Source: a virus
Taxonomy: Duplodnaviria > Caudoviricetes
IMG/VR virus record: IMGVR_UViG_2974508059_000001
Span: 96,001-160,000 of that record
DNA: 64,000 nt
Direction: 5' to 3' (one strand)
A model generated the notes under the pieces. The model was not told where the DNA came from and ran no database searches. It worked only from the letters and a program-made list of their open reading frames with translations. Every line of letters begins with the position of its first letter. The stretch's first letter is position 1. A program made the position numbers and the translations under genes. Below, piece by piece: positions 5,666 through 48,127 of the stretch.

Positions 5666-6298
5666 ATGGATAATAACCAAACCAAGCGTATAGGTAATCG
5701 TCGTAGCAACCTGCCGATTGTGGGAGAGGTGGTGTATATAAGGGGTCTTCTTACAGAAGATTCTTTTGACCCTGCGAAAATTGAAAAGCGTGGCGGTGTC
5801 GTTAAGATGCTGGACTACAAAACAGGCGTTCATCTCCGTTTGTACCGGAAAGCCGTGGACTACATGCTCTCTCTGGCAGAGTTCGCGGACGGCTATAAAG
5901 CTGTCGGCATGGAATCCACTGTGGCGGTATCGGATTACTCAGCTCACATCGAGCAGCTTTTCGAGGCACTCGAGGCTGTCGAAACTGTGTCCGAAGGCAT
6001 TCCAACCACCCTTGCGGAGTCTGCGCAAGAAAACGTCCCCGGGTCAGAAAAGCAGCCAGCATTAACGTTGGAACTGGCGGAGGTGATGGCGTGGCTGAAT
6101 AACCCTAATGCGGTTAACGGCTTAACCCTAGAACAGGTCTTGGAACTGACCCAAGCGCTCCAAATGCAACTTGGCTACATCGTCGGGAAAGTTGGACTGT
6201 TGCATAACGAAGCGACGCGTCCCGAGCGTACCAGTTCACTGCTCGGCGGTAGTTCCCTACTCAGCCCTTGCGGTAGTAGCCAATCTTTTAGACTCTAA
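5666..6298 (+). CDS. hypothetical protein
   Basis: 210 aa, AAGGAG SD. Confidence 0.7.
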   Translation: MDNNQTKRIGNRRSNLPIVGEVVYIRGLLTEDSFDPAKIEKRGGVVKMLDYKTGVHLRLYRKAVDYMLSLAEFADGYKAVGMESTVAVSDYSAHIEQLFEALEAVETVSEGIPTTLAESAQENVPGSEKQPALTLELAEVMAWLNNPNAVNGLTLEQVLELTQALQMQLGYIVGKVGLLHNEATRPERTSSLLGGSSLLSPCGSSQSFRL

Positions 6299-6334
6299 TA
6301 GACCCATCGACCTTTTATCCGTAAGGAGTAATCT

Positions 6335-6982
6335 ATGTTAACACCAGTCCAGTCTCTGTTAGATGTAACGTACGCCCCTGCCATCGCTGGCATGAAAGAT
6401 GGCGTAGAGCAATTTTTGACAACCGTCGAGAGCGTGCCTTTCGACCAGTTTGCGTATCTGAACGAAGACTTTGAAGTTGAGCAGCTCGCCATCTGCTTCT
6501 TGGATGCAGACGTTGTCAGTGTGGTTATCCAAGGGGGCTTAGATAAAGCGGCCATTAAGTCACTGACCAACTACTACACCAACGCCGTTGCGGTGCGTGT
6601 GTACTACAGCGATCAAGAAGATTTCCCGAAAGGCGATGACTGGTCTGTAGAGGGCCTGTCGTTCCTGATGGACAATCCACCGTTTGACGAATCCCTCCCA
6701 GCGTTCGAAGCGACGCAGGACGATGTGTTCGTTACCATCAAAGTCGGCGACAAGGCCATGCTCGGTACCCTGCTCAGCGACCTCAATACGTTCTCGGTCA
6801 TGGCAACCGGTGAATACCAGCCTGAGATGGAAAACGAACTGAAAGTGGCGATGGCTTATTGTAATGGGCAAGAGTGTCGCTTACTGGTACAAGCGTATCA
6901 CAACTCATGGATAAAGCCGATGCTGGACATGGGCTTTGAAGCAAACCGCTGGATTCTCAAGGCTGACTTCAACCACCTCTGA
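6335..6982 (+). CDS. hypothetical protein, possibly a degenerate GNAT fold
   Basis: 215 aa, AAGGAG SD; C-terminal LLVQAYHNSWIKPMLDMGF resembles GNAT motif B. Confidence 0.65.
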   Translation: MLTPVQSLLDVTYAPAIAGMKDGVEQFLTTVESVPFDQFAYLNEDFEVEQLAICFLDADVVSVVIQGGLDKAAIKSLTNYYTNAVAVRVYYSDQEDFPKGDDWSVEGLSFLMDNPPFDESLPAFEATQDDVFVTIKVGDKAMLGTLLSDLNTFSVMATGEYQPEMENELKVAMAYCNGQECRLLVQAYHNSWIKPMLDMGFEANRWILKADFNHL

Positions 6983-8623: not shown

Positions 8624-9577
8624 ATGCCCATTATTCGACTGTCAGTCGGTGTGCTAAAAACCCAAGAGTTTGCACATCTGGCCGATAACCCCAAACTGTG
8701 GATGCGACTTAAGTCGCACGTTAAAGATGACGACATGCGCGTCTATGCCTTGGTTACCGCCGGTGGCATTCCCCAAGCTTACGCGGTGTGCAGTTACACC
8801 AGTGGGTCTACGTCGCTGCTGTGCAGTTACTTCGAAGACCTTATCCCGGCCAGCATTAACCGTCCGTTCTGGTTGGCGCTACTCGACTACACCGGCTTTG
8901 ACGTTCTGCGTATCGTTGCCCCGAACGACACCATCGGTGAAATCGTTAAGGGTTACGAGTTCAAACTGGTTGAAGAGATGTGGGTCGGTAACGTTACACC
9001 GTACCGTGGCTTCCCGGTCTCGGAGAACATCCACAGTGTCTCTGGTGATGCGTTCTATAAGCTCAGCACCGAAGATGTGGAAGACCTGCACAAACTCATC
9101 TGGGCGGCAACTGTCGCTGAAATTAATACCGATGTCTTGGAACGCCGTCTCACGCAGATGGTGCCCAACGGTATGGATGAAGTGCTGGGACGCACCGGGG
9201 ATTACCACTACGAAGTGTTTGTGCTGCGTGAACCCGAGCTGAAGAATAAAATCATTGGCTTTGCCTACTGCCACAAACTCGAACCGGGTTATATTGCGGT
9301 TGGGGGTCTAGGTGTTGCACAGGAGCACCAGAACAAACGTCACGGGCGTAAGCTTGCGGCGGCGGTATTGGCCCACGCCTCGGGGATGACCGATCAGGTG
9401 TACGCAACGGTGTTGTCGCAGAACCATGCGTCACGTCATCTGTTTGCGGATATCCTAAAGTTCAAACCGGTGATGTCCGTTTACGGCATCAGTCGCAACG
9501 AAGTGGATAAGCCTGTACCGCACGTAACCAAGGTCGCTGCTGAGAAGCGCGCCAAACAGATGCTGGGACTGTTATAG
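8624..9577 (+). CDS. GNAT family acetyltransferase (probably tandem GNAT domains)
   Basis: C-terminal GLGVAQEHQNKRHGRKL...VLSQNHASRHLF GNAT motifs; N-terminal half similar but degenerate. Confidence 0.8.
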   Translation: MPIIRLSVGVLKTQEFAHLADNPKLWMRLKSHVKDDDMRVYALVTAGGIPQAYAVCSYTSGSTSLLCSYFEDLIPASINRPFWLALLDYTGFDVLRIVAPNDTIGEIVKGYEFKLVEEMWVGNVTPYRGFPVSENIHSVSGDAFYKLSTEDVEDLHKLIWAATVAEINTDVLERRLTQMVPNGMDEVLGRTGDYHYEVFVLREPELKNKIIGFAYCHKLEPGYIAVGGLGVAQEHQNKRHGRKLAAAVLAHASGMTDQVYATVLSQNHASRHLFADILKFKPVMSVYGISRNEVDKPVPHVTKVAAEKRAKQMLGLL

Positions 9578-9656
9578 TCCGAAGGCACGGCTAACTATTA
9601 TAAAAGGGTGAGCGACGCTCTGGATAGCTTACAGGGCGTCTGACGAGGTATTTCGG

Positions 9657-10478
9657 ATGAAGCGATCGTTTATAAAATGGATGGGGGGTAAATCCCGTGT
9701 AATGGATGCGCTGAAGCACCATCTTCCCAAGGGGGACGTGTTCATTGAACCGTTCGTTGGCGGTGGGTCCGTGTTTCTGAACACCGACTATCCTGAATAC
9801 ATTTTGGCCGATTCAAATCCTGACCTTATTCAGTTAATGGAAGTTGCCGCATACCAGCCGGCGTTGTTAATTGAGCAAGCGAAGGTGTTGTTCGGCGGTG
9901 GTGAACGTGATGATTACATGGCGCACCGCAAGGCCTTTAATACCCGGGACGGGGAGCCGCACGTCAGGGCTGCCATGTTCCTGTATTTGAATCGCCATGG
10001 TTACAACGGTCTGTGCCGTTACAATAAATCTGGGGGGTATAACGTTCCGTACGGTCGCCACCCCAGTAAGCCGTATCTGCCCGAGAAGGAGATTCTCGAA
10101 TTTGCAGAGAAAGTGAAGAAAGGAAAGGTGACTTTCTTGTGTGCTGACTTTCAGCAGACGGTTGCACTCGCACAACAGCAGAATAAGCGTAAGGTCGTCA
10201 TCTATTGTGATCCGCCTTACGTACCCAGTAGCAAAACATCTTCCTTTGCGCAGTACCACAAAAACGAATTTGGTCAAGCCGAGCACCGTGCATTAGCCAA
10301 CGTGCTGATGGACGCCAGACGCTCGGGGGCCAAAGTGGTATTGTCAAACTCCGATACCGTTCTGACCCGCGATATCTATCACGGCTTTACCTTTCACACG
10401 GTAGAAGTCGGTAGACACATGGCGGCGAAGAAAGAGAAACGGGGTAAAGTAATTGAAGTGATTGCAACGCTATTCTGA
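9657..10478 (+). CDS. dam: DNA adenine methylase (Dam family)
   Basis: KWMGGKS, EPFVGGGSVF, LYLNRHGYNGLCRYN and catalytic DPPY motifs. Confidence 0.95.
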   Translation: MKRSFIKWMGGKSRVMDALKHHLPKGDVFIEPFVGGGSVFLNTDYPEYILADSNPDLIQLMEVAAYQPALLIEQAKVLFGGGERDDYMAHRKAFNTRDGEPHVRAAMFLYLNRHGYNGLCRYNKSGGYNVPYGRHPSKPYLPEKEILEFAEKVKKGKVTFLCADFQQTVALAQQQNKRKVVIYCDPPYVPSSKTSSFAQYHKNEFGQAEHRALANVLMDARRSGAKVVLSNSDTVLTRDIYHGFTFHTVEVGRHMAAKKEKRGKVIEVIATLF

Positions 10479-14956: not shown

Positions 14957-15580
14957 ATGGCAACCCCAAAGAAACGTAATAAAAAGTACAACCGTGTGAA
15001 GTCCATGGACAACATCGCACTCAGCGCTGCACAGAACGCCCTGAACCGTATCGCCTTCGTGGGCAGCTCTATCCGACCGCTTGCCCCTTATGGCGGGCGG
15101 TCTTTTCAATTAACATCAACCGGCAACATGCGCATCGCCGTGGCTGAGATTCTGACTTCGTCGCTGTTCGAAGAAGCACGGGATTGGCGGGCATGGATTC
15201 TGCATCTGTATCAGGACGGTGAAGCGATTACTGCTGAGAGCATGCGCTTGCTGCTGCCGGAATACACGTTGGCGGACTTCACTGAGCACGCTGACTTCCT
15301 TATCGAACAAACCCGCGATAAAGAACAGGTGCACTACGGCTATGCCGTCTTTGCCTCCCCGACCGACAAGTTCGATTTGGACGCCATGGATGAAGGCCTC
15401 ACGGAGAACTTCATGCACTCCGGTATCCTCGACAAGTCTCAGCACTTAACGCCTGAAGAGCACAAGGTGGATAAGGCTTTGATGCTGGCAAAGATTGTGG
15501 GTTATCAGACCAAGTTTGATCTCACCCGCAAGCACAAAGTGGAAGTGTCCGAAAGCTACGTTAAAACCCACGAAGAATAA
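14957..15580 (+). CDS. hypothetical protein with basic N-terminus
   Basis: Start moved to MATPKKRNKKYNR after AAGGAG. Confidence 0.75.
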   Translation: MATPKKRNKKYNRVKSMDNIALSAAQNALNRIAFVGSSIRPLAPYGGRSFQLTSTGNMRIAVAEILTSSLFEEARDWRAWILHLYQDGEAITAESMRLLLPEYTLADFTEHADFLIEQTRDKEQVHYGYAVFASPTDKFDLDAMDEGLTENFMHSGILDKSQHLTPEEHKVDKALMLAKIVGYQTKFDLTRKHKVEVSESYVKTHEE

Positions 15581-40786: not shown

Positions 40787-41371
40787 CTAGCCAAATAAGG
40801 CCTTCGCGTAAGTACGCATTTCACCCCAGATGCGACCCAACCAACCGTAGGTGAAGGTCTCGTTCGCTTTACGCTTCTCAGAGATATCCACGTAGTGGTA
40901 GGTCTGCATCCCGGTCAAACCAACCAGCAGGTAATTCATGCCCTCTGCACCGCGTTTTGCGAAGAACGCTTTCAGTGCAGTCAGGGTCTTCGTTCCCATG
41001 CCTTTGTCAACCACGAGATCAGCGTAATGGGTCTCTTGGTTGTTCAGCACGTTCAGAAGACGTTGCAGAGATTCCACAGCGTTTGCACGACCGGCATTGA
41101 TAGCATAGTCGAACAGACGGTCAGCCAGAAGCGGATTGAGGGCGAGGATATCATCCAGATAAAGCTTGTTCCACCAAAGTTTAACATAGATGTCTAACGC
41201 CGTTGACTGTGGCATCGAGACCATGGGGCCGGTGTAGCCATAATCCAGTGCCGTTGCTTTTGTGATGCCCCAGATGGTTTCACCACCGAGGTCGTTCTTG
41301 TTGTTGACATATCCCGCCTCGATATTCACTTTGGCGCGGATGATGCCTTCTCGACTGAAACGGTCTGCCAT
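40787..41371 (-). CDS. endolysin, glycoside hydrolase family 108 with C-terminal peptidoglycan-binding domain
   Basis: EAGYVNNKNDLGGETIWGIT (EGGY..D.GG.T..GI), FDYAINAG, LQRLLN, D..MG.KT, F.YGW..R. Confidence 0.9.
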   Translation of the reverse strand: MADRFSREGIIRAKVNIEAGYVNNKNDLGGETIWGITKATALDYGYTGPMVSMPQSTALDIYVKLWWNKLYLDDILALNPLLADRLFDYAINAGRANAVESLQRLLNVLNNQETHYADLVVDKGMGTKTLTALKAFFAKRGAEGMNYLLVGLTGMQTYHYVDISEKRKANETFTYGWLGRIWGEMRTYAKALFG

Positions 41372-41430: not shown

Positions 41431-41463
41431 ATAAAAAGAAGAAAGGGTGCCCCGAAGGGCACC
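41431..41463 (-). terminator. Rho-independent terminator ending the radical SAM operon
   Basis: Minus strand GGTGCCC-TTCG-GGGCACC plus CTTTCTTCTTTTT. Confidence 0.8.
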
Positions 41464-41467
41464 ACTG

Positions 41468-42109
41468 TTATTCTACCGACGGATTAAACTCCGCCGCGTC
41501 GAGTGAGGCGTAATCGCCCTGCTCCGCAAATGCACGGATACGGGTTTTGTACGCGGTCAACTGAACGTGCAGCTGTGCGTTACGTGCGACAATCAGAGAG
41601 TACAGCATCTCTGTGTCTTTCGCTTCCCACTCTTCCAGCGCTTGGTTATCGGCAGTCACCCAATACTCCGGCACGGTGTTCGTTTGCACGAAGCCGGCCA
41701 GGGTGGTCAGGGTCTCACCTGCGGTCTGGAACATGTGGTCTTTGTACGCAATGTCAGCCGTGACCGCTTCACCGTACGCTGCATTAGTGGCCTGAAGTTT
41801 CTTGGCCAGCAGAGTATAGCAATACGCTTTGGTCGACTGCAACTCTTTGAGGTAATCCTTCACCTGAATCCCCAACACGTCTTTGATAAACGTTTTGGTT
41901 TGGCGTAGGGTGTAGTTGGCTTCGAACTGGGTCTGCCCCTGCTCTTGCAACTGACGCAGTGCATCTTTCTCACTGAGTCCCTCTAAGAGTGCGTAGTGTA
42001 AACGCTTGGCCAGCGTGACATCGCCGTTGGGGTCAAAGAACAACCCGTTGCGGTCAATCTGGCCATCGCCGTTTTCAAACCGCGCTTTTATCTCGTCAGC
42101 ACTAAGCAT
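41468..42109 (-). CDS. DUF4376-like tail fibre assembly protein
   Basis: C-terminal IAYKDHMFQT......YWVTADNQ..........LH......K..I pattern typical of DUF4376. Confidence 0.6.
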   Translation of the reverse strand: MLSADEIKARFENGDGQIDRNGLFFDPNGDVTLAKRLHYALLEGLSEKDALRQLQEQGQTQFEANYTLRQTKTFIKDVLGIQVKDYLKELQSTKAYCYTLLAKKLQATNAAYGEAVTADIAYKDHMFQTAGETLTTLAGFVQTNTVPEYWVTADNQALEEWEAKDTEMLYSLIVARNAQLHVQLTAYKTRIRAFAEQGDYASLDAAEFNPSVE

Positions 42110-42636
42110 TCTTTCTCTCCCACGAATCCAACTTTGGTCAACATGTCATAGGACATGATTTCAAAGTCGATACGAAGATCCAGACGGTACTGCAAGTTCG
42201 GCAACGGCTGGTCATTTTCTTGGAACGCCTGCATGAACATCATGTCATCGAAGTAATGACACGCGCTCTCGGGGTTGCGCACCATCCAGACCGGGACATC
42301 CGGGAAGGACAGACACAGTGCCACCAGAGAATCACCGCCACGATCGATAGTGCCGGTACGCAGGATGTTTACCTTTGAAGCAGGGGCCGCCAGAATACGC
42401 GCTTCGAAACCCGGGTTACGCTTTTCGATTTCTGCTAACGAGTCGTGGCCGTTCTCCACGCACTGAATCGGCAGGACAACGTTAAGAGCAAAACGGTTAA
42501 TCAAACGCAGCCAGTGATCGTTGAAATCATCGGCAGGCACGATAGCGTGAATGTTAAACAGCTTATAATGCTGTAAGAACGCTTCGATTTTGCGACTATC
42601 GTACTTCGTAAAATTCTGGAGAAGCAGGCTTTTCAT
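42088..42636 (-). CDS. hypothetical protein in the radical SAM operon
   Basis: 182 aa, overlapping both neighbours. Confidence 0.7.
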   Translation of the reverse strand: MKSLLLQNFTKYDSRKIEAFLQHYKLFNIHAIVPADDFNDHWLRLINRFALNVVLPIQCVENGHDSLAEIEKRNPGFEARILAAPASKVNILRTGTIDRGGDSLVALCLSFPDVPVWMVRNPESACHYFDDMMFMQAFQENDQPLPNLQYRLDLRIDFEIMSYDMLTKVGFVGEKECLVLTR

Positions 42637-43993
42637 TCTTGAATTGTTCCTTGCGGTCAGTTTGTTCCACAGCCATGGTCATCTCACGGATGGCGGTGAC
42701 GTGTAAAGGCTGTTCTGCAGCTTCGCGGGTGAGTTTCTCTTCAACAGCAAAGTTGCGCTTCTGTTGGCACTGGTAACAGTTACAAACAGACTTGTCGTAC
42801 TGCGATTCGTACGACCCGAAACGTTGTTTCCACCACTGCGCCACTAAGAGCTTCGCGGTAGTCCAACCACACTGGCGACGTTCGCCGTGATACTCTTTAC
42901 GAGCGTCTTCTTCACCGTCGCCATTTTCATACGCCGCCGCCACGCACGAGGCACACAGGTGCTTCGCTGGGCAACCGATACACTGGTCAGGATACGACTT
43001 CCACTGTTCCTGAACTTCGGCCAGCAGTTTACCGCCGTCGGTGTTCACGATGGTTTGACCTTCGAGCTTACCGATGGCCTGACGGGTGGTTACCGTGGAC
43101 ATGAAGCGGTTACAACCGAAGATGTTACGGTCGAAGCCGAGACAAGTCATGTACACCGTGGTGCCGCAGTGCGGACGCAGACGTTGTGGGTCGTAGCGTA
43201 CAGAGTCATCATGGATGAGCTTCTCACGCCAGTCCGGGTTCCACAGTTGGTCAACATCCAGACCGTCCGGCAGCACGTGACCGATTTCAGAGTTCTGGTC
43301 TAAGTGCAGACCTTTCTCAATGAAATACTCCGCCACTTCGATGAACTGGTTGGCAATCTCGAGTGCCATCTGGCGCGGTAACACGTCTTCGAAAACGACG
43401 TTACCGTACAGACGACCGCCCCCGGTCACATCAATCAGCGACTTCATCCCAGCACCGTACTGCATCAGCGTTTCTTTCGTGAAGGTGGCTTTCACCCCAA
43501 TCTCACGAACACCGATTTCTTGCAGAAGCTTATAGCCGGCGACCGCTGCTTGGTAAGACCCTTGACGGGACGTGGTGAAGATACGGTACTTATCGTGGGT
43601 CTCGGGCAGACCATCGATAGAGACACCGATCGACAGGTAATCTTTCCAGCGATTCAGAATCTCCAGCGCCAGCGGTTTGTCAAACAACGTGCCGTTGGTG
43701 GAGATAGAGAACACGTAAGGCAGATTGTGCTTTTTGCACAGCTCTTCTGCGGTTTCGAAGGCCGCTTTCAGCAGCTTCGGCTGCATGAAGGGTTCGCCAC
43801 CGATGATATCGATGATGATACCGTCGATACCTTGGTTCTTCGAGAAGAAGCGATGTTTATCGCGATTAAAGCAGGCGTGAATAAAATCAACGACATCAGC
43901 GACTTTGTTATTACGCGGATACTTACGCTCGTAGCAATACTCACAGTCGAGGTTGCACGATAGGTTGGTGACTATCTGGTAGGTTGCATCCAT
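42596..43993 (-). CDS. radical SAM/SPASM peptide maturase (CXXX-repeat target family-like)
   Basis: CNLDCEYC, IIGGEPF, ISTNGT, VSIDG..HD..R....GSY, NVVFED, SPASM cysteines (HCGT..GCNRF..CIGCPAKHLCASC..CGW), extra CNCYQC. Confidence 0.92.
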   Translation of the reverse strand: MDATYQIVTNLSCNLDCEYCYERKYPRNNKVADVVDFIHACFNRDKHRFFSKNQGIDGIIIDIIGGEPFMQPKLLKAAFETAEELCKKHNLPYVFSISTNGTLFDKPLALEILNRWKDYLSIGVSIDGLPETHDKYRIFTTSRQGSYQAAVAGYKLLQEIGVREIGVKATFTKETLMQYGAGMKSLIDVTGGGRLYGNVVFEDVLPRQMALEIANQFIEVAEYFIEKGLHLDQNSEIGHVLPDGLDVDQLWNPDWREKLIHDDSVRYDPQRLRPHCGTTVYMTCLGFDRNIFGCNRFMSTVTTRQAIGKLEGQTIVNTDGGKLLAEVQEQWKSYPDQCIGCPAKHLCASCVAAAYENGDGEEDARKEYHGERRQCGWTTAKLLVAQWWKQRFGSYESQYDKSVCNCYQCQQKRNFAVEEKLTREAAEQPLHVTAIREMTMAVEQTDRKEQFKNEKPASPEFYEVR

Positions 43994-44005
43994 CCCTATC
44001 TCCCC

Positions 44006-44890
44006 TTATTTTTTAATTGGATTAAGCCAGTTCATGATGTAACGGTAGCCGTGCTCACCGATGGCCAGTGCAATCTTGTTGCAGCCACGGTCCACGACCA
44101 TCTCAACGTTCTCAGGAACTTGCAGGTCGCCATTCGGTTGACTGACGATAATTTCACTACAGGCATTACACGCATCTTCTTCGAAGAACTTCTCGAGCTT
44201 GATGATGGTGTCACGCTTGTTAATGCGGTTGAGCTTACGCATGTTGTCTTGCAGACGCTCAAAGCCGTACACGAAGTTTAACACGTGGTCAGGCGACAGC
44301 ACTTTCTTCATCTGGTTATCGAACAGGTAGTTCATGCCGAGGAAACCAAGATGGTGAATGGCGTCTTGCATTTTCATCATGCCTTCGTGCCAGCGCATGT
44401 CCCCGATCTTCTCACGGGTTAACACTGACCAGAGGATAACGTTGTCCAGCTGGGCGATGACTTCAAACGCTTCGGTATCACCGGAACGAGCAAAGTCCAT
44501 TAAACCACGGGCATCATCTTCGTAACCGTCGATGGAGACCACAACACGATGGAAGGTTTTCAAAAACTCGACTTGCTCTAAACGTAACTTACGTCCGTTT
44601 GTGAAAAGATAGTGCACGGCAGAAGGACGTTCTACGCGCATCATCTCGACCGACTCGACGAGTTTACGGTAAGACAGTAACGGCTCACCCCCCGTCCAGA
44701 TGATCTCTTCCACACCGGGATTCTTTTTCAGTAACTCCATCATTGCCTCTTCATGGGTTTTACGAGACACGTCCCCTTTGACCATGTGAATCTCACCCGC
44801 ACAAAACGAACAATTGAGGTTACACTTCGACGTCAATGCTACGTTAATGGTCTTTGCAGGTGAGTAAACATCTTTACTTAACGTTCTCAT
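44006..44890 (-). CDS. radical SAM protein (short C-terminal Cys cluster)
   Basis: CNLNCSFC, WTGGEPLL, FTNG, VSIDG; CNAC...GC near the C-terminus. Confidence 0.9.
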   Translation of the reverse strand: MRTLSKDVYSPAKTINVALTSKCNLNCSFCAGEIHMVKGDVSRKTHEEAMMELLKKNPGVEEIIWTGGEPLLSYRKLVESVEMMRVERPSAVHYLFTNGRKLRLEQVEFLKTFHRVVVSIDGYEDDARGLMDFARSGDTEAFEVIAQLDNVILWSVLTREKIGDMRWHEGMMKMQDAIHHLGFLGMNYLFDNQMKKVLSPDHVLNFVYGFERLQDNMRKLNRINKRDTIIKLEKFFEEDACNACSEIIVSQPNGDLQVPENVEMVVDRGCNKIALAIGEHGYRYIMNWLNPIKK

Positions 44891-45800
44891 CCGTCATTCC
44901 GTACAGGCGACGTTGGAAAGAGAACAGTGGGTCGGTGTCTCGTACATCTTCACCCGCCTTTAACAGACGTGGTGAGCGATACGCATCGTACAGTGCGTTA
45001 AGAACGGATTGACGCTCACCCATGCGGATAAGGTCGTCCAGTTCAACCGGGGACGAAATAAACGGTTCCAGCGCAGCCTGTTGTTCGTCGGTGAACTCTT
45101 TCAGCTGTGACTGGAGCAGGAAGCGAATCAGTTTGCGATCATCCGCCGTGGAGTTCGGGACAGCGCCAAACTCAGTCTGACAGAGATAGGCCATCCACGG
45201 TTTACGGATGCGGAGTGTTTGCGCATGCGGGTCTGCGATGTAGACCCACTCTTGCTTCTCTGCATCCCATGCAAACTTATAACTAAACGCGAGTAAGTCT
45301 GCCAAGCAGTCGATATTCGCGGCTTCAAGGCCAGAGAACGGGTGATACATTTCACGGTCTTTCTCCACGCTTCCAGTGCCGGCTTCCACCAGTTTGAATA
45401 AGTGGGACCAGCTTCCGCAGTAATCGCTGCTGTAGCTACGCACGCACACCGGACGCATGCCGAGTTCTTTAAAGGACTCGAACATCAGTTCCAGTGGTGC
45501 ACTATAGTTCAGTACCGAATCTGTGAAAAAATACTTGTCGTTGACAAGCTTCCCGGTAAAACCAGAACCGCCTAAGGCGAACTGAATGGATTTCACGTTC
45601 AGCTTGCCCACCGTGGTCGCATCAATCACGGTGTACTCTTTTTTCGTAAAGTTGCGACCGCGAAGCTTAGGCCATTCAAACTGGTCCATGGCAATCAGCC
45701 GCAGCTCGTCGTTGATGTGTGCGTTAACACTGTCCGGTGACGAGATGTGAATTGGGTAATTCATGCTCGTGCGGTACGCAAGATGATCGTTACTCTTCAT
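44874..45800 (-). CDS. hypothetical protein in the radical SAM operon
   Basis: 308 aa, AGGGGA SD, overlaps the rSAM gene. Confidence 0.75.
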   Translation of the reverse strand: MKSNDHLAYRTSMNYPIHISSPDSVNAHINDELRLIAMDQFEWPKLRGRNFTKKEYTVIDATTVGKLNVKSIQFALGGSGFTGKLVNDKYFFTDSVLNYSAPLELMFESFKELGMRPVCVRSYSSDYCGSWSHLFKLVEAGTGSVEKDREMYHPFSGLEAANIDCLADLLAFSYKFAWDAEKQEWVYIADPHAQTLRIRKPWMAYLCQTEFGAVPNSTADDRKLIRFLLQSQLKEFTDEQQAALEPFISSPVELDDLIRMGERQSVLNALYDAYRSPRLLKAGEDVRDTDPLFSFQRRLYGMTDENVK

Positions 45801-45812
45801 TAGGTTCCCCTG

Positions 45813-46022
45813 TTAACTCGGGAAGGAGACTGATTTCGCACCGCCTGAGCTACTCCAGCTACAGGTTCCGCCGCAGTTGTACGCGCCAGCACGAATCCCA
45901 CCCAAGTTGTTGGTGTTGTTACACGTTCCACGGTTGGCGATATAATCAACCGCCTGTCCCGTGGTAATATAGCGTTCGATGCTCGCCACGCGGTTACCGA
46001 TGTCTTTCAAGCTTACTGCCAT
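45813..46022 (-). CDS. short paralog of the Cys-rich repeat peptides
   Basis: MAVSLK leader, NNTNNLGG, CGGTCSWS; GGAG SD. Confidence 0.75.
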   Translation of the reverse strand: MAVSLKDIGNRVASIERYITTGQAVDYIANRGTCNNTNNLGGIRAGAYNCGGTCSWSSSGGAKSVSFPS

Positions 46023-46031
46023 AGCCTACTC

Positions 46032-46460
46032 CTACGGTCCAGAACAGCCTGCTCCACAACTCCCGCCACAGCCACTACCGCAACTTCCCGAGCACCCGCC
46101 AGAACATTTGCCTGAACAGTTACCCGAGCATGTGCCAGAACAACCGCCGGAGCAGCCGCCGCCACAGTTACCGCCACAGCTGCCACTACAACCACCGGTG
46201 CAGCTAGATGAACAGTTGCCCGAACAGGATGACGAACACCCAGACGAGCAGTTACCCGTACAGCCACCAGAACAGCCGTTACCGCACGTCCAGCTACAAG
46301 AGCCGTTACAGTGCAGTGCCGCTGGGGTGAAACCGTTGAGTAAATCAGCATTATTAGTAGTGCGTCCACCGATGTAGTTTTGCACGCCTGCTTCAGTTTT
46401 TAGTGCGGTGTTCTCAATATTGACAACACGGTCACGCACCGATTTTAATGAAATCGCCAT
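46032..46460 (-). CDS. Cys-rich (CXXX)23 repeat peptide, putative radical SAM substrate
   Basis: 50-aa leader MAISLK.. then 23 perfectly phased Cxxx units (x mostly G/S/N/T); AGGAG SD. Confidence 0.85.
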   Translation of the reverse strand: MAISLKSVRDRVVNIENTALKTEAGVQNYIGGRTTNNADLLNGFTPAALHCNGSCSWTCGNGCSGGCTGNCSSGCSSSCSGNCSSSCTGGCSGSCGGNCGGGCSGGCSGTCSGNCSGKCSGGCSGSCGSGCGGSCGAGCSGP

Positions 46461-46468
46461 TTCCGCTC

Positions 46469-46858
46469 CTAAGGGCTGCTACAACCAGCACTGCAGTTAC
46501 TGCTACAGGTGCCAGAGCAACCGCTAGAGCAGCTGCTGCCACATGAACCTGAACAGCCGCTTGAACAGCCACCAGAACACGAGGATGAGCAACCTCCCCC
46601 GCAACCACCAGAACACGAGCCCGAACAGTTACCTGTACACACGCCGCTACAGCTTCCTGAGCAGCTCGAGCAACCGTGACTACAACCTGACGAACACGTC
46701 CAACTGCACGACCCGTTACAACGGGCCCACGTATCAGGTTGGCCTGCCAATAGATTCGCATTGTGAACTTTGCTGTTCACCTGCCCCTCTACGGACGCGC
46801 CGGTTGCTGCTTGGACTCGGTCAAGACGGGCACTTAGTTCTTTAAGTGATATCGCCAT
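46469..46858 (-). CDS. Cys-rich (CXXX)21 repeat peptide, putative radical SAM substrate
   Basis: 46-aa leader MAISLK.. then 21 Cys at 4-residue spacing (one 3-residue step); GGAAGG SD. Confidence 0.85.
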   Translation of the reverse strand: MAISLKELSARLDRVQAATGASVEGQVNSKVHNANLLAGQPDTWARCNGSCSWTCSSGCSHGCSSCSGSCSGVCTGNCSGSCSGGCGGGCSSSCSGGCSSGCSGSCGSSCSSGCSGTCSSNCSAGCSSP

Positions 46859-46878: not shown

Positions 46879-46916
46879 ACACGGGCACTCGCCATATAGA
46901 CGAGGCCCGTGTGTAA
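46879..46916 (-). promoter_or_regulatory. putative TTAC-N16-TATG promoter overlapping a hairpin, upstream of the precursor operon
   Basis: Minus strand AATTAC-ACACGGGCCTCGTCTA-TATG-GCGAGTGCCCGTGT. Confidence 0.45.
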
Positions 46917-46921
46917 TTATA

Positions 46922-48127
46922 TTAACGTGAACCGGCATCAGCCTGTACATCGTCACGTGTGGTCAAGTTGGCGTTGACGTGCACGTTTGCCTGAACCACG
47001 CCGCCATACTGCTTGTGCAGGTACTGGGTGTGTGGATCGGCGGCAGACAGGTGGTTAGCGAGCGTCTGGTTAACACTGGCGATGTTGCCCTCGGTCGTGG
47101 TGACACGACGGGTCAGTGCGGTCAGGTCAACACGCAGCTGGTCAATCTGCTGCTGTGCGTCACCGGCTCCGGACTTGAGGTCATCAATCTGGTCTTGCAA
47201 CCCAACGGCCGTTTGCTTCAACTCATTCACGGTTTTCTGTAACGTCAATACCAGTGAATTGAGGTTGGCCACAATCAACGTCATCTTCTGGTAGTTTTGG
47301 TCTACCGTGTTCAGTTGGTCGTTGAAGGTGGTCAGCGAACTGACGATGGCATCAATGCGCCCACCCAGTGCCGTATCAGCAGCCTTAAGGTCGCCAATCT
47401 GGACGAGGGTTGCATCGATAGCTGCCTGCACGCCGGCAATCAACGCACGGATTTCGGTTGCGGTCAAACCATCAATATCGTGGATATCAAGGTTGTGCAC
47501 GTTACCCGTGGCATTGATGTGGGCATTCAGCGCGTCCAAGAAGTTATTCTTGATGTCGCCGATGATGTCTTTGATTTTCTCAAGCTGAACGGCATCGCCT
47601 GAACCAATCGCATCCAGAATACCCGAGAGCAGGGTAATGACGTATTCAAAACCAAAGATATCGCCAACGTCTTTAAACGCCGGGGCACCCGGTAGCGTAT
47701 CCGGGAAATCGATTAAGTCGGCAAAGTTCACCTTCTTATTATCAATGCCCAGAATCGCAATCGCATTTTCAATCGCAGTCACGTTCGCAGACATTGGCCC
47801 ACCGACAACCTGAGCGGTCACGATGATGTCTGTTGGAATGCTGCTGTTGGTCACTACAACTGCCATCACGACTTCTTTGTTGCCCGAGAGCTTCATGTAG
47901 GCCGGATGAGCGAAAATCAGTTCGTAGTCGGTACCACGTTTATACGGCGTGGTGGGCGAGTTCGTGGCACGCAGTTTAAAACTGTCTGCGTAAAACGGAC
48001 CTGCCGGAAAAGCAAAAGACCGGTTAACTTTACCGGAACCCAAGACCACGGGGATACTTACCGCGTTCGATGTCAGAGTTCCTTTAAGGTCAAGCGGATA
48101 CTGGAAAATAATATCACTCATCTCCAA
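46922..48127 (-). CDS. tail fibre protein (coiled-coil)
   Basis: Shared fibre N-domain (DL.G....N, PFY, G.DY), long heptad coiled coil, HLSAADPHTQY fibre motif. Confidence 0.8.
   Translation of the reverse strand: MEMSDIIFQYPLDLKGTLTSNAVSIPVVLGSGKVNRSFAFPAGPFYADSFKLRATNSPTTPYKRGTDYELIFAHPAYMKLSGNKEVVMAVVVTNSSIPTDIIVTAQVVGGPMSANVTAIENAIAILGIDNKKVNFADLIDFPDTLPGAPAFKDVGDIFGFEYVITLLSGILDAIGSGDAVQLEKIKDIIGDIKNNFLDALNAHINATGNVHNLDIHDIDGLTATEIRALIAGVQAAIDATLVQIGDLKAADTALGGRIDAIVSSLTTFNDQLNTVDQNYQKMTLIVANLNSLVLTLQKTVNELKQTAVGLQDQIDDLKSGAGDAQQQIDQLRVDLTALTRRVTTTEGNIASVNQTLANHLSAADPHTQYLHKQYGGVVQANVHVNANLTTRDDVQADAGSR

Follow-up and report, generated by a model that had tools for sequence, protein, structure and literature searches.

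Several described radical S-adenosylmethionine (SAM) enzymes modify peptides or proteins with repeated cysteines. PapB, known from freyrasin, closes six rings on repeated CX3D motifs (PMC12373016). QhpD and CrpC are SPASM radical SAM enzymes that install several thioethers in Cys-rich proteins; CrpC also crosslinks non-acidic motifs, and CrpA and CrpB of Methanococcus have a common N-terminal segment of about 47 residues and repeated Cys motifs (PMC13692751). A further system, based on CXXX repeats (TIGR04114/TIGR04115 in NCBIfam/TIGRFAMs), has been catalogued, and we found no experimental paper on this family in the literature. Here we describe an operon of a similar kind in a tailed phage. 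The DNA analysed, called the window below, is a stretch of 64,000 nucleotides (positions 96,001 to 160,000 of IMG/VR record IMGVR_UViG_2974508059_000001). The source is a 244,950-base virus record of an SPN3US/Wellington-like jumbo phage of enterobacteria. The operon (41468-46858 of the window) encodes small proteins with a ladder of cysteines together with two radical SAM enzymes, which we call enzyme 1 and enzyme 2. Judged by sequence, it belongs with the CXXX-repeat radical SAM system, catalogued but uncharacterised, as a variant linked to phage tails, and it fails formal membership in TIGR04115. We give an even chance to the reading that its genes are expressed late and serve to build, and chemically modify, a small element at the distal end of the tail fibre.

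The phage operon and the CXXX-repeat system both have a Cys at every fourth residue, small spacer residues, and a SPASM radical SAM enzyme without an N-terminal RiPP recognition element (RRE; RiPP, ribosomally synthesised and post-translationally modified peptide). Unlike the CXXX-repeat system, the operon lacks the TIGR04116 helper and the TIGR04119 domain; instead it has a second enzyme, a 308-aa protein, a predicted barrel of 182 aa and a DUF4376 protein, and it sits in a tail module. Neither TIGR04116 nor TIGR04119 matched any operon protein at E 0.1, whereas the same scan detects both in a canonical cellular locus of Clostridium sp. 19966 (L123, 5449-13898). That locus has a TIGR04115-04119 fusion, TIGR04116, a 65-aa peptide, a peptidase-like gene and ABC transporters. 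Genome-wide searches for the two families were also blank, with weak controls.

PapB and CteB (5WGG) have the same radical SAM and SPASM architecture as enzyme 1, but they use an RRE and a leader and make free peptides, and PapB needs carboxylate acceptors, which the phage cores do not have. The pairs QhpD/QhpC and CrpC/CrpA differ in being cellular, in containing an RRE, in having another repeat and in acting outside any virion. On the structural side, the nearest described proteins are the fibre/baseplate proteins gp131-135 of phiKZ and gp167-170 of SPN3US; gp167 has the N-terminal region of phiKZ gp135 and occupies the same genomic slot.

The operon and its cysteine ladders

The cassette lies directly behind the tail gene gp167. 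Its features, all on the minus strand, are as follows.

46922..48127, minus: gp167 ortholog, a fibre-like tail protein with a phiKZ gp135-type N-terminal anchor and a coiled shaft
46879..46912, minus: hairpin with TATG in the loop (TATG 46896-46893), probable late start site, function inferred
46469..46858, minus: small protein 1, 129 aa, a 46-aa heptad/junction segment and a 21-Cys CXXX ladder
46032..46460, minus: small protein 2, 142 aa, a 50-aa heptad/junction segment and a 23-Cys CXXX ladder
45813..46022, minus: small protein 3, 69 aa, the common N-terminal segment and the first CxGxCSW unit only
44874..45800, minus: 308-aa accessory protein, marker of this subfamily, possible substrate-presenting chaperone
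44006..44890, minus: radical SAM enzyme 2, 294 aa, PF04055 match, CX3CX2C, without a full SPASM domain
42596..43993, minus: radical SAM/SPASM enzyme 1, 465 aa, CX3CX2C at 13-20 and seven invariant SPASM-type Cys
42088..42636, minus: 182-aa accessory protein, predicted partial beta/alpha barrel
41468..42109, minus: 213-aa DUF4376-family protein, assigned to the family via its orthologs
41446..41463, minus: intrinsic terminator with a UUCG loop, operon end

The initial annotation, made from the letters alone, had described a tightly coupled minus-strand operon closed by a UUCG terminator, and this description holds for all eight open reading frames (ORFs). Each is preceded by a purine-rich ribosome binding site, and neighbouring genes are separated by 8-12 nt or overlap by 17-41 nt. 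No transmembrane segment is predicted in any operon protein, and family scans together with transmembrane prediction found no leader peptidase or exporter among them, as the annotation had stated. A secreted bacteriocin was rejected because export genes are lacking. Directly past the terminator there is a GH108 (glycoside hydrolase 108) endolysin-like gene (40787-41371, minus strand), which is relocated and inverted in SPN3US-type relatives.

The near-strict period of four and the short third paralog were likewise seen at first reading, and the counts bear them out. Small protein 1 has 21 Cys, spaced by four residues with a single spacing of three, small protein 2 has 23 Cys, every spacing being four, and small protein 3 has three Cys in total. 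The longest CX2-3 runs are thus 21 and 23, versus 3-4 in shuffled windows. Most differences from three orthologs hit the third position of codons in the Cys frame (176/250, 191/270 and 65/105), so the Cys frames are the coding frames. Taken together, these two results mean that the ladders are real, selected protein features, and they rule out a low-complexity artefact or a wrong reading frame.

The three small proteins are paralogous. Each has a heptad segment and an N/D-x-x-x-L-x-G-x7-C junction, and the Cys ladder comes next. Small proteins 1 and 2 pass the TIGR04114 cut-off of 20 bits (23.7 and 24.4 bits), and small protein 1 also matches phrog_6085. Ser, Cys, Gly and Thr make up about 89% of the core residues, Cys alone 25%, and the junction Trp is nearly invariant. 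No Asp or Glu occurs in the 24 cores examined, hence no CX3D/E acceptor motifs; acceptors of the PapB type are thereby excluded. In two other phages chain 3 is extended: forms of 210 and 147 aa occupy the same slot, and their C-terminal extensions are unrelated Cys-free domains of 77 and 142 residues.

The radical SAM enzymes and accessory proteins

Both enzymes have the CX3CX2C motif reported for them initially, and it is invariant in alignments. In enzyme 1, C13, C17 and C20 together with C276, C294, C338, C341, C347, C350 and C375 are invariant among 33 sequences, so that it shows both the cluster motif and the auxiliary-cluster Cys of radical SAM/SPASM enzymes. Its best family is TIGR04115 (113.8 bits, profile positions 7-341 of 359), with the cut-off of 350 not reached; the enzyme of the Clostridium locus, taken as a control, scores 558 bits. 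The PapB family comes second (107.7 bits, also below its cut-off). The suggested kinship with TIGR04114/TIGR04115 therefore stands for the two long peptides and stays below threshold for the enzyme. The closest solved relative of enzyme 1 is the thioether-forming CteB (5WGG, E 5e-37). Its counterpart in Erwinia phage pEa_SNUABM_11 is 93% identical, and those of SPN3US, CR5 and related jumbo phages are 59-67% identical.

Enzyme 2 has the invariant CX3CX2C, three invariant C-terminal Cys (C241, C244 and C270) and no clear family. It is duplicated, giving a third enzyme, in 2 of 16 close loci; in L008 (4542-5453) and L015 (4543-5454) the extra copy lies between chains 1 and 2 and is 63% identical to the resident one. 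In a 284-kb phage (L023, 7134-9194) enzymes 2 and 1 are naturally fused into one protein of 686 aa, which suggests that they act together. The cluster motif begins at residue 13 in enzyme 1 and at residue 23 in enzyme 2, which leaves no room for an N-terminal RRE on either. Structure models of the 308- and 182-aa proteins, taken alone, gave no RRE match and leave an RRE possible.

The 308-aa protein was modelled with a pLDDT (predicted local distance difference test) of 86 and has no PDB match at Z >= 5, which falls short of showing a new fold. It accompanies the enzyme throughout its clade and may take the role of an RRE in presenting the substrate. Comparison rejected its identity with TIGR04116, and a likeness to a 213-aa protein of another locus (L054) is too weak to claim.

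The model of the 182-aa protein (pLDDT 85) has radical SAM cores as its best natural structural matches, with Z of 8.9, 8.6 and 8.1 and a root-mean-square deviation of 3.2-3.9 Å over 144-160 residues; the matched cores are without the cluster-binding strand, and a designed TIM barrel matches equally well. Against the Atlas, TM is 0.66-0.69. The profile of the 182-aa family matched neither enzyme nor the TIGR04119 region when compared with each, so the case for a pseudo-enzyme comes from the fold. The model is thus suggestive of a radical-SAM-like barrel without the cluster motif, possibly a pseudo-enzyme. The 182-aa protein was found solely alongside the three-gene form with two long chains and one short chain. 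Leads from ESM Atlas feature searches with the 308- and 182-aa proteins were all below 0.9. The DUF4376-like label of the 213-aa protein proved sound for its family: 11 of 12 members match PF14301, and the window protein itself misses it. From the usual context of the family, we take it to be a probable fibre assembly helper.

Links to tail fibres, and distribution

The gp167 ortholog belongs to phrog_2163 (E 1e-101), is 64% identical to SPN3US gp167 and matches phiKZ gp135 over residues 11-211. It is a candidate attachment point for the small proteins. In SPN3US, mass spectrometry (MS) classed gp167 as Tail, with 880 spectra in virions versus 5 in tailless heads (PMC10052503).

In the enzyme tree (FastTree, midpoint root, hence no direction of transfer is claimed) the window enzyme 1 lies inside a clade (99) in which the 308-aa family is present in every one of the ten rows. 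In four members of this clade, from unrelated phages or prophages, the ladder is the C-terminus of a longer tail-module protein. Two of these proteins are unambiguous tail fibres, namely a tail/collar fibre in L022 (E 1e-54) and a tail fibre in L023 (E 3e-32); that of L024 has a weaker tail fibre match (2e-9), and that of L025 matched no fibre family. Homologs of the 308-aa protein adjoin all four (E 2e-17 to 1e-4). With a further fibre-fused ladder in L207, the substrate module is homologous to the C-termini of tail fibres in L022-L024 and L207. Since the same ladder ends tail fibres in other phages, the target of cross-linking is probably a tail appendage and not a free peptide.

The segment before the ladder points the same way. 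A leader-plus-junction profile matches L024 (3e-8) and L025 (5e-4), and among 1.84 billion proteins it found fused forms of 185-226 aa that adjoin tail genes and a radical SAM gene. Long multi-repeat matches of the leader profile turned out to be unrelated surface proteins. The N/D-x-x-x-L-x-G-x7-C junction with a following SW unit is common to the window chains, L024, L025 and four more fused proteins. Thus the "leader" would be the end of a fibre shaft. It is also attached to unrelated Cys-free domains in three phages: two have the extended forms of chain 3, and L208 has a Cys-free protein in which a leader-like start (E 0.001) precedes a tail-fibre domain. The earlier RiPP-like view is not supported in its original form, since the small proteins do not resemble precursors with a cleaved leader: the segment behaves as a fibre shaft and junction, the closest systems carry the ladder on tail-fibre C-termini, and the maturase has no room for an N-terminal RRE.

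The cassettes of L205 and L208 sit among fibre or gp167-like genes. That of L208 (2492-10829) holds four radical SAM genes, two per type, and chains with 31 and 33 Cys. In more distant viral loci, the ladder adjoins the enzyme in 76 of 78. This co-occurrence and the TIGR04114 scores support the original proposal that a lytic jumbo phage has a peptide-modification pathway of its own, here a radical SAM system directed at CXXX repeats. In one prophage (L016, 4069-4543), two small peptides with CXX repeats (period 3) lie between a tail-fibre gene and a SPASM enzyme.

GenBank has about 60 records from phages of this group for each of three proteins: full-length gp167, the 308-aa protein and enzyme 1. 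When loci are taken around the 308-aa gene, every one of the 16 has a pair of long ladders, a single short chain and both enzymes. In phiKZ, Goslar and Moabite no such cassette was found in the gp167 slot, only the N-terminal part of gp167 being in common. Synteny across related jumbo phages, which the initial annotation proposed to survey, is therefore intact in the close loci and does not extend to phiKZ-type phages: the system is confined to the clade of SPN3US-like phages and to certain uncultured jumbo phages. A nuclear-shell search gave no match and none of its controls worked, so that Chimalliviridae membership was not established by search. The two-long-one-short triad is also kept in five divergent phages with shuffled gene order, a persistence that suggests a heterotrimer.

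The small genes are often mis-annotated. In GenBank, a wrong-frame gp166 of SPN3US, probably not a real gene, overlies chain 2, and chains 1 and 3 are absent; CR5 and pEa_SNUABM_11 hold similar errors. Wrong-frame or antisense ORFs are annotated over ladder genes in L001/L021 (SPN3US, 9094-10123), L003 (CR5, 6151-6956) and L002 (6136-6962). The correct SPN3US ORFs of the three small proteins are at 9094-9486, 9497-9901 and 9917-10123 of L021.

Late expression is suggested by the hairpin between gp167 and small protein 1. Its TATG is invariant in 15 of 15 loci, compensatory changes occur in 3 of 10 pairs, a T-rich tract comes next in most relatives, and it is the strongest TATG-loop hairpin of the genome. 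TATG is the late-promoter consensus, or late start motif, of phiKZ (PMC7598289), and the hairpin is a probable late start site. Another strong hairpin with TATG in the loop and then a T-rich tract (15070-15110, plus strand) may be an element of the same type.

Proposed fibre maturation and its alternatives

Enzymatic action on the Cys ladder is very probable, location of the small proteins in the virion fibre is likely, and thioether formation as the chemistry is favoured with somewhat less assurance. These parts are not independent, and jointly they come out near even. In the mechanism we propose, the N-terminal segment would be retained as a fibre shaft and not cleaved, and two long chains and one short chain would come together as a tip resembling a trimer, mounted on gp167 or on a fibre nearby. 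Enzyme 1, with the 308-aa protein helping it in place of an RRE, would abstract H from a small residue close to the Cys (Ser, Thr, Gly or Asn) and link that residue to the Cys sulfur, so that a series of thioether rings resistant to reduction would arise. Enzyme 2 would make a separate modification, probably at the CxGxCSW junction common to the three chains, and the 182-aa and DUF4376 proteins would be non-virion helpers. Indeed, gp161, gp162 and gp163 of SPN3US were detected as non-virion proteins (PMC10052503), and gp161 is the counterpart of the 213-aa protein. The fullest version, in which a dedicated two-enzyme pathway staples the virion fibre tip with about 20 thioether rings per chain and the SPN3US-like tip is a three-gene heterotrimer whose short chain has swappable domains, is tentative, its chances being below even.

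Several observations weigh against fibre maturation. Enzyme 1 lies far below the TIGR04115 and PapB cut-offs, and Asp/Glu acceptors of the PapB type are absent. The main counter-example is L206 (6278-10742), a full cassette away from tail or fibre genes; it lies downstream of a nucleotidyltransferase and an Acb2/Tad1-like gene and upstream of GIY-YIG and GroEL genes. A leader-only profile misses the window's own fibres (gp167-170), and a tail-family match (E 1e-14) was found for only 4 of 10 sampled distant upstream genes. Neither modification nor virion location has been observed for any member so far. In the virion tables of SPN3US no entry falls between gp163 and gp167 (PMC10052503), an absence that weighs only if the 273-entry MS search database included the small-chain ORFs. 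Trypsin digestion of either long chain would release three peptides without Cys. As GenBank SPN3US misses the small genes, the published virion proteomics was probably blind to them.

The small proteins could be virion fibre parts whose chemistry is not mainly thioether stapling, which we regard as unlikely but as the foremost alternative. Backbone epimerisation, a Cys-Trp or aromatic crosslink at the junction, Cys oxidation, and loading of the ladder with metal or Fe-S are the options. Regular Cys arrays can bind metals, the cores offer no Asp/Glu acceptors, the junction Trp is nearly invariant, and enzyme 2 fits no clear family and has no more than three auxiliary Cys; two different enzymes and a possible pseudo-enzyme also suggest more than one reaction. 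However, the best families and the best structure for enzyme 1 are thioether formers, known or predicted, the small spacer residues suit crosslinking, and CrpC crosslinks motifs that are not acidic.

Two further explanations take the small proteins out of the fibre. A true RiPP, with its leader cut off by a protease of the host or the phage and its modified cores acting in the infected cell or released at lysis, would account for the leader-plus-core layout, for the short peptides, peptidase-like gene and ABC exporters of cellular TIGR04115 systems such as that of Clostridium, and for the L206 cassette near an Acb2/Tad1-like gene. We hold it improbable: orthologous substrates are fused to fibres, the leader is reused on Cys-free domains, no RRE, peptidase or exporter was found, a DUF4376 gene is in the operon, and most loci are in a tail module. 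Least probable of all is a non-virion Cys-rich sink for metal, sulfur or redox equivalents, or an assembly scaffold; the enzymes would then act on something else, for instance gp167 or gp168. It agrees with cores that are 25% Cys and with the lack of reports of the small proteins in SPN3US virions, but ladder and enzyme strictly occur together in unrelated phages and the ladder is covalently fused to fibres, both of which count against it.

Fibre-tip maturation is directly testable, because the orthologous cassette is present in SPN3US, an aerobically grown phage with amber genetics, virion MS data and mis-annotated small genes. Literature searches on the SPN3US radical SAM genes, TIGR04115 and phage fibre thioethers found no description of such a system, many subscription papers being outside their coverage. 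If the reading is true, it would be a radical-mediated covalent maturation of a virus structural protein, for which we found no description in the literature. It would assign a biological role to the long-catalogued TIGR04114/04115 family and provide enzymes that close about 20 rings on Ser/Gly/Thr-rich sequences. Phages would then build part of their adsorption apparatus post-translationally, by radical chemistry.

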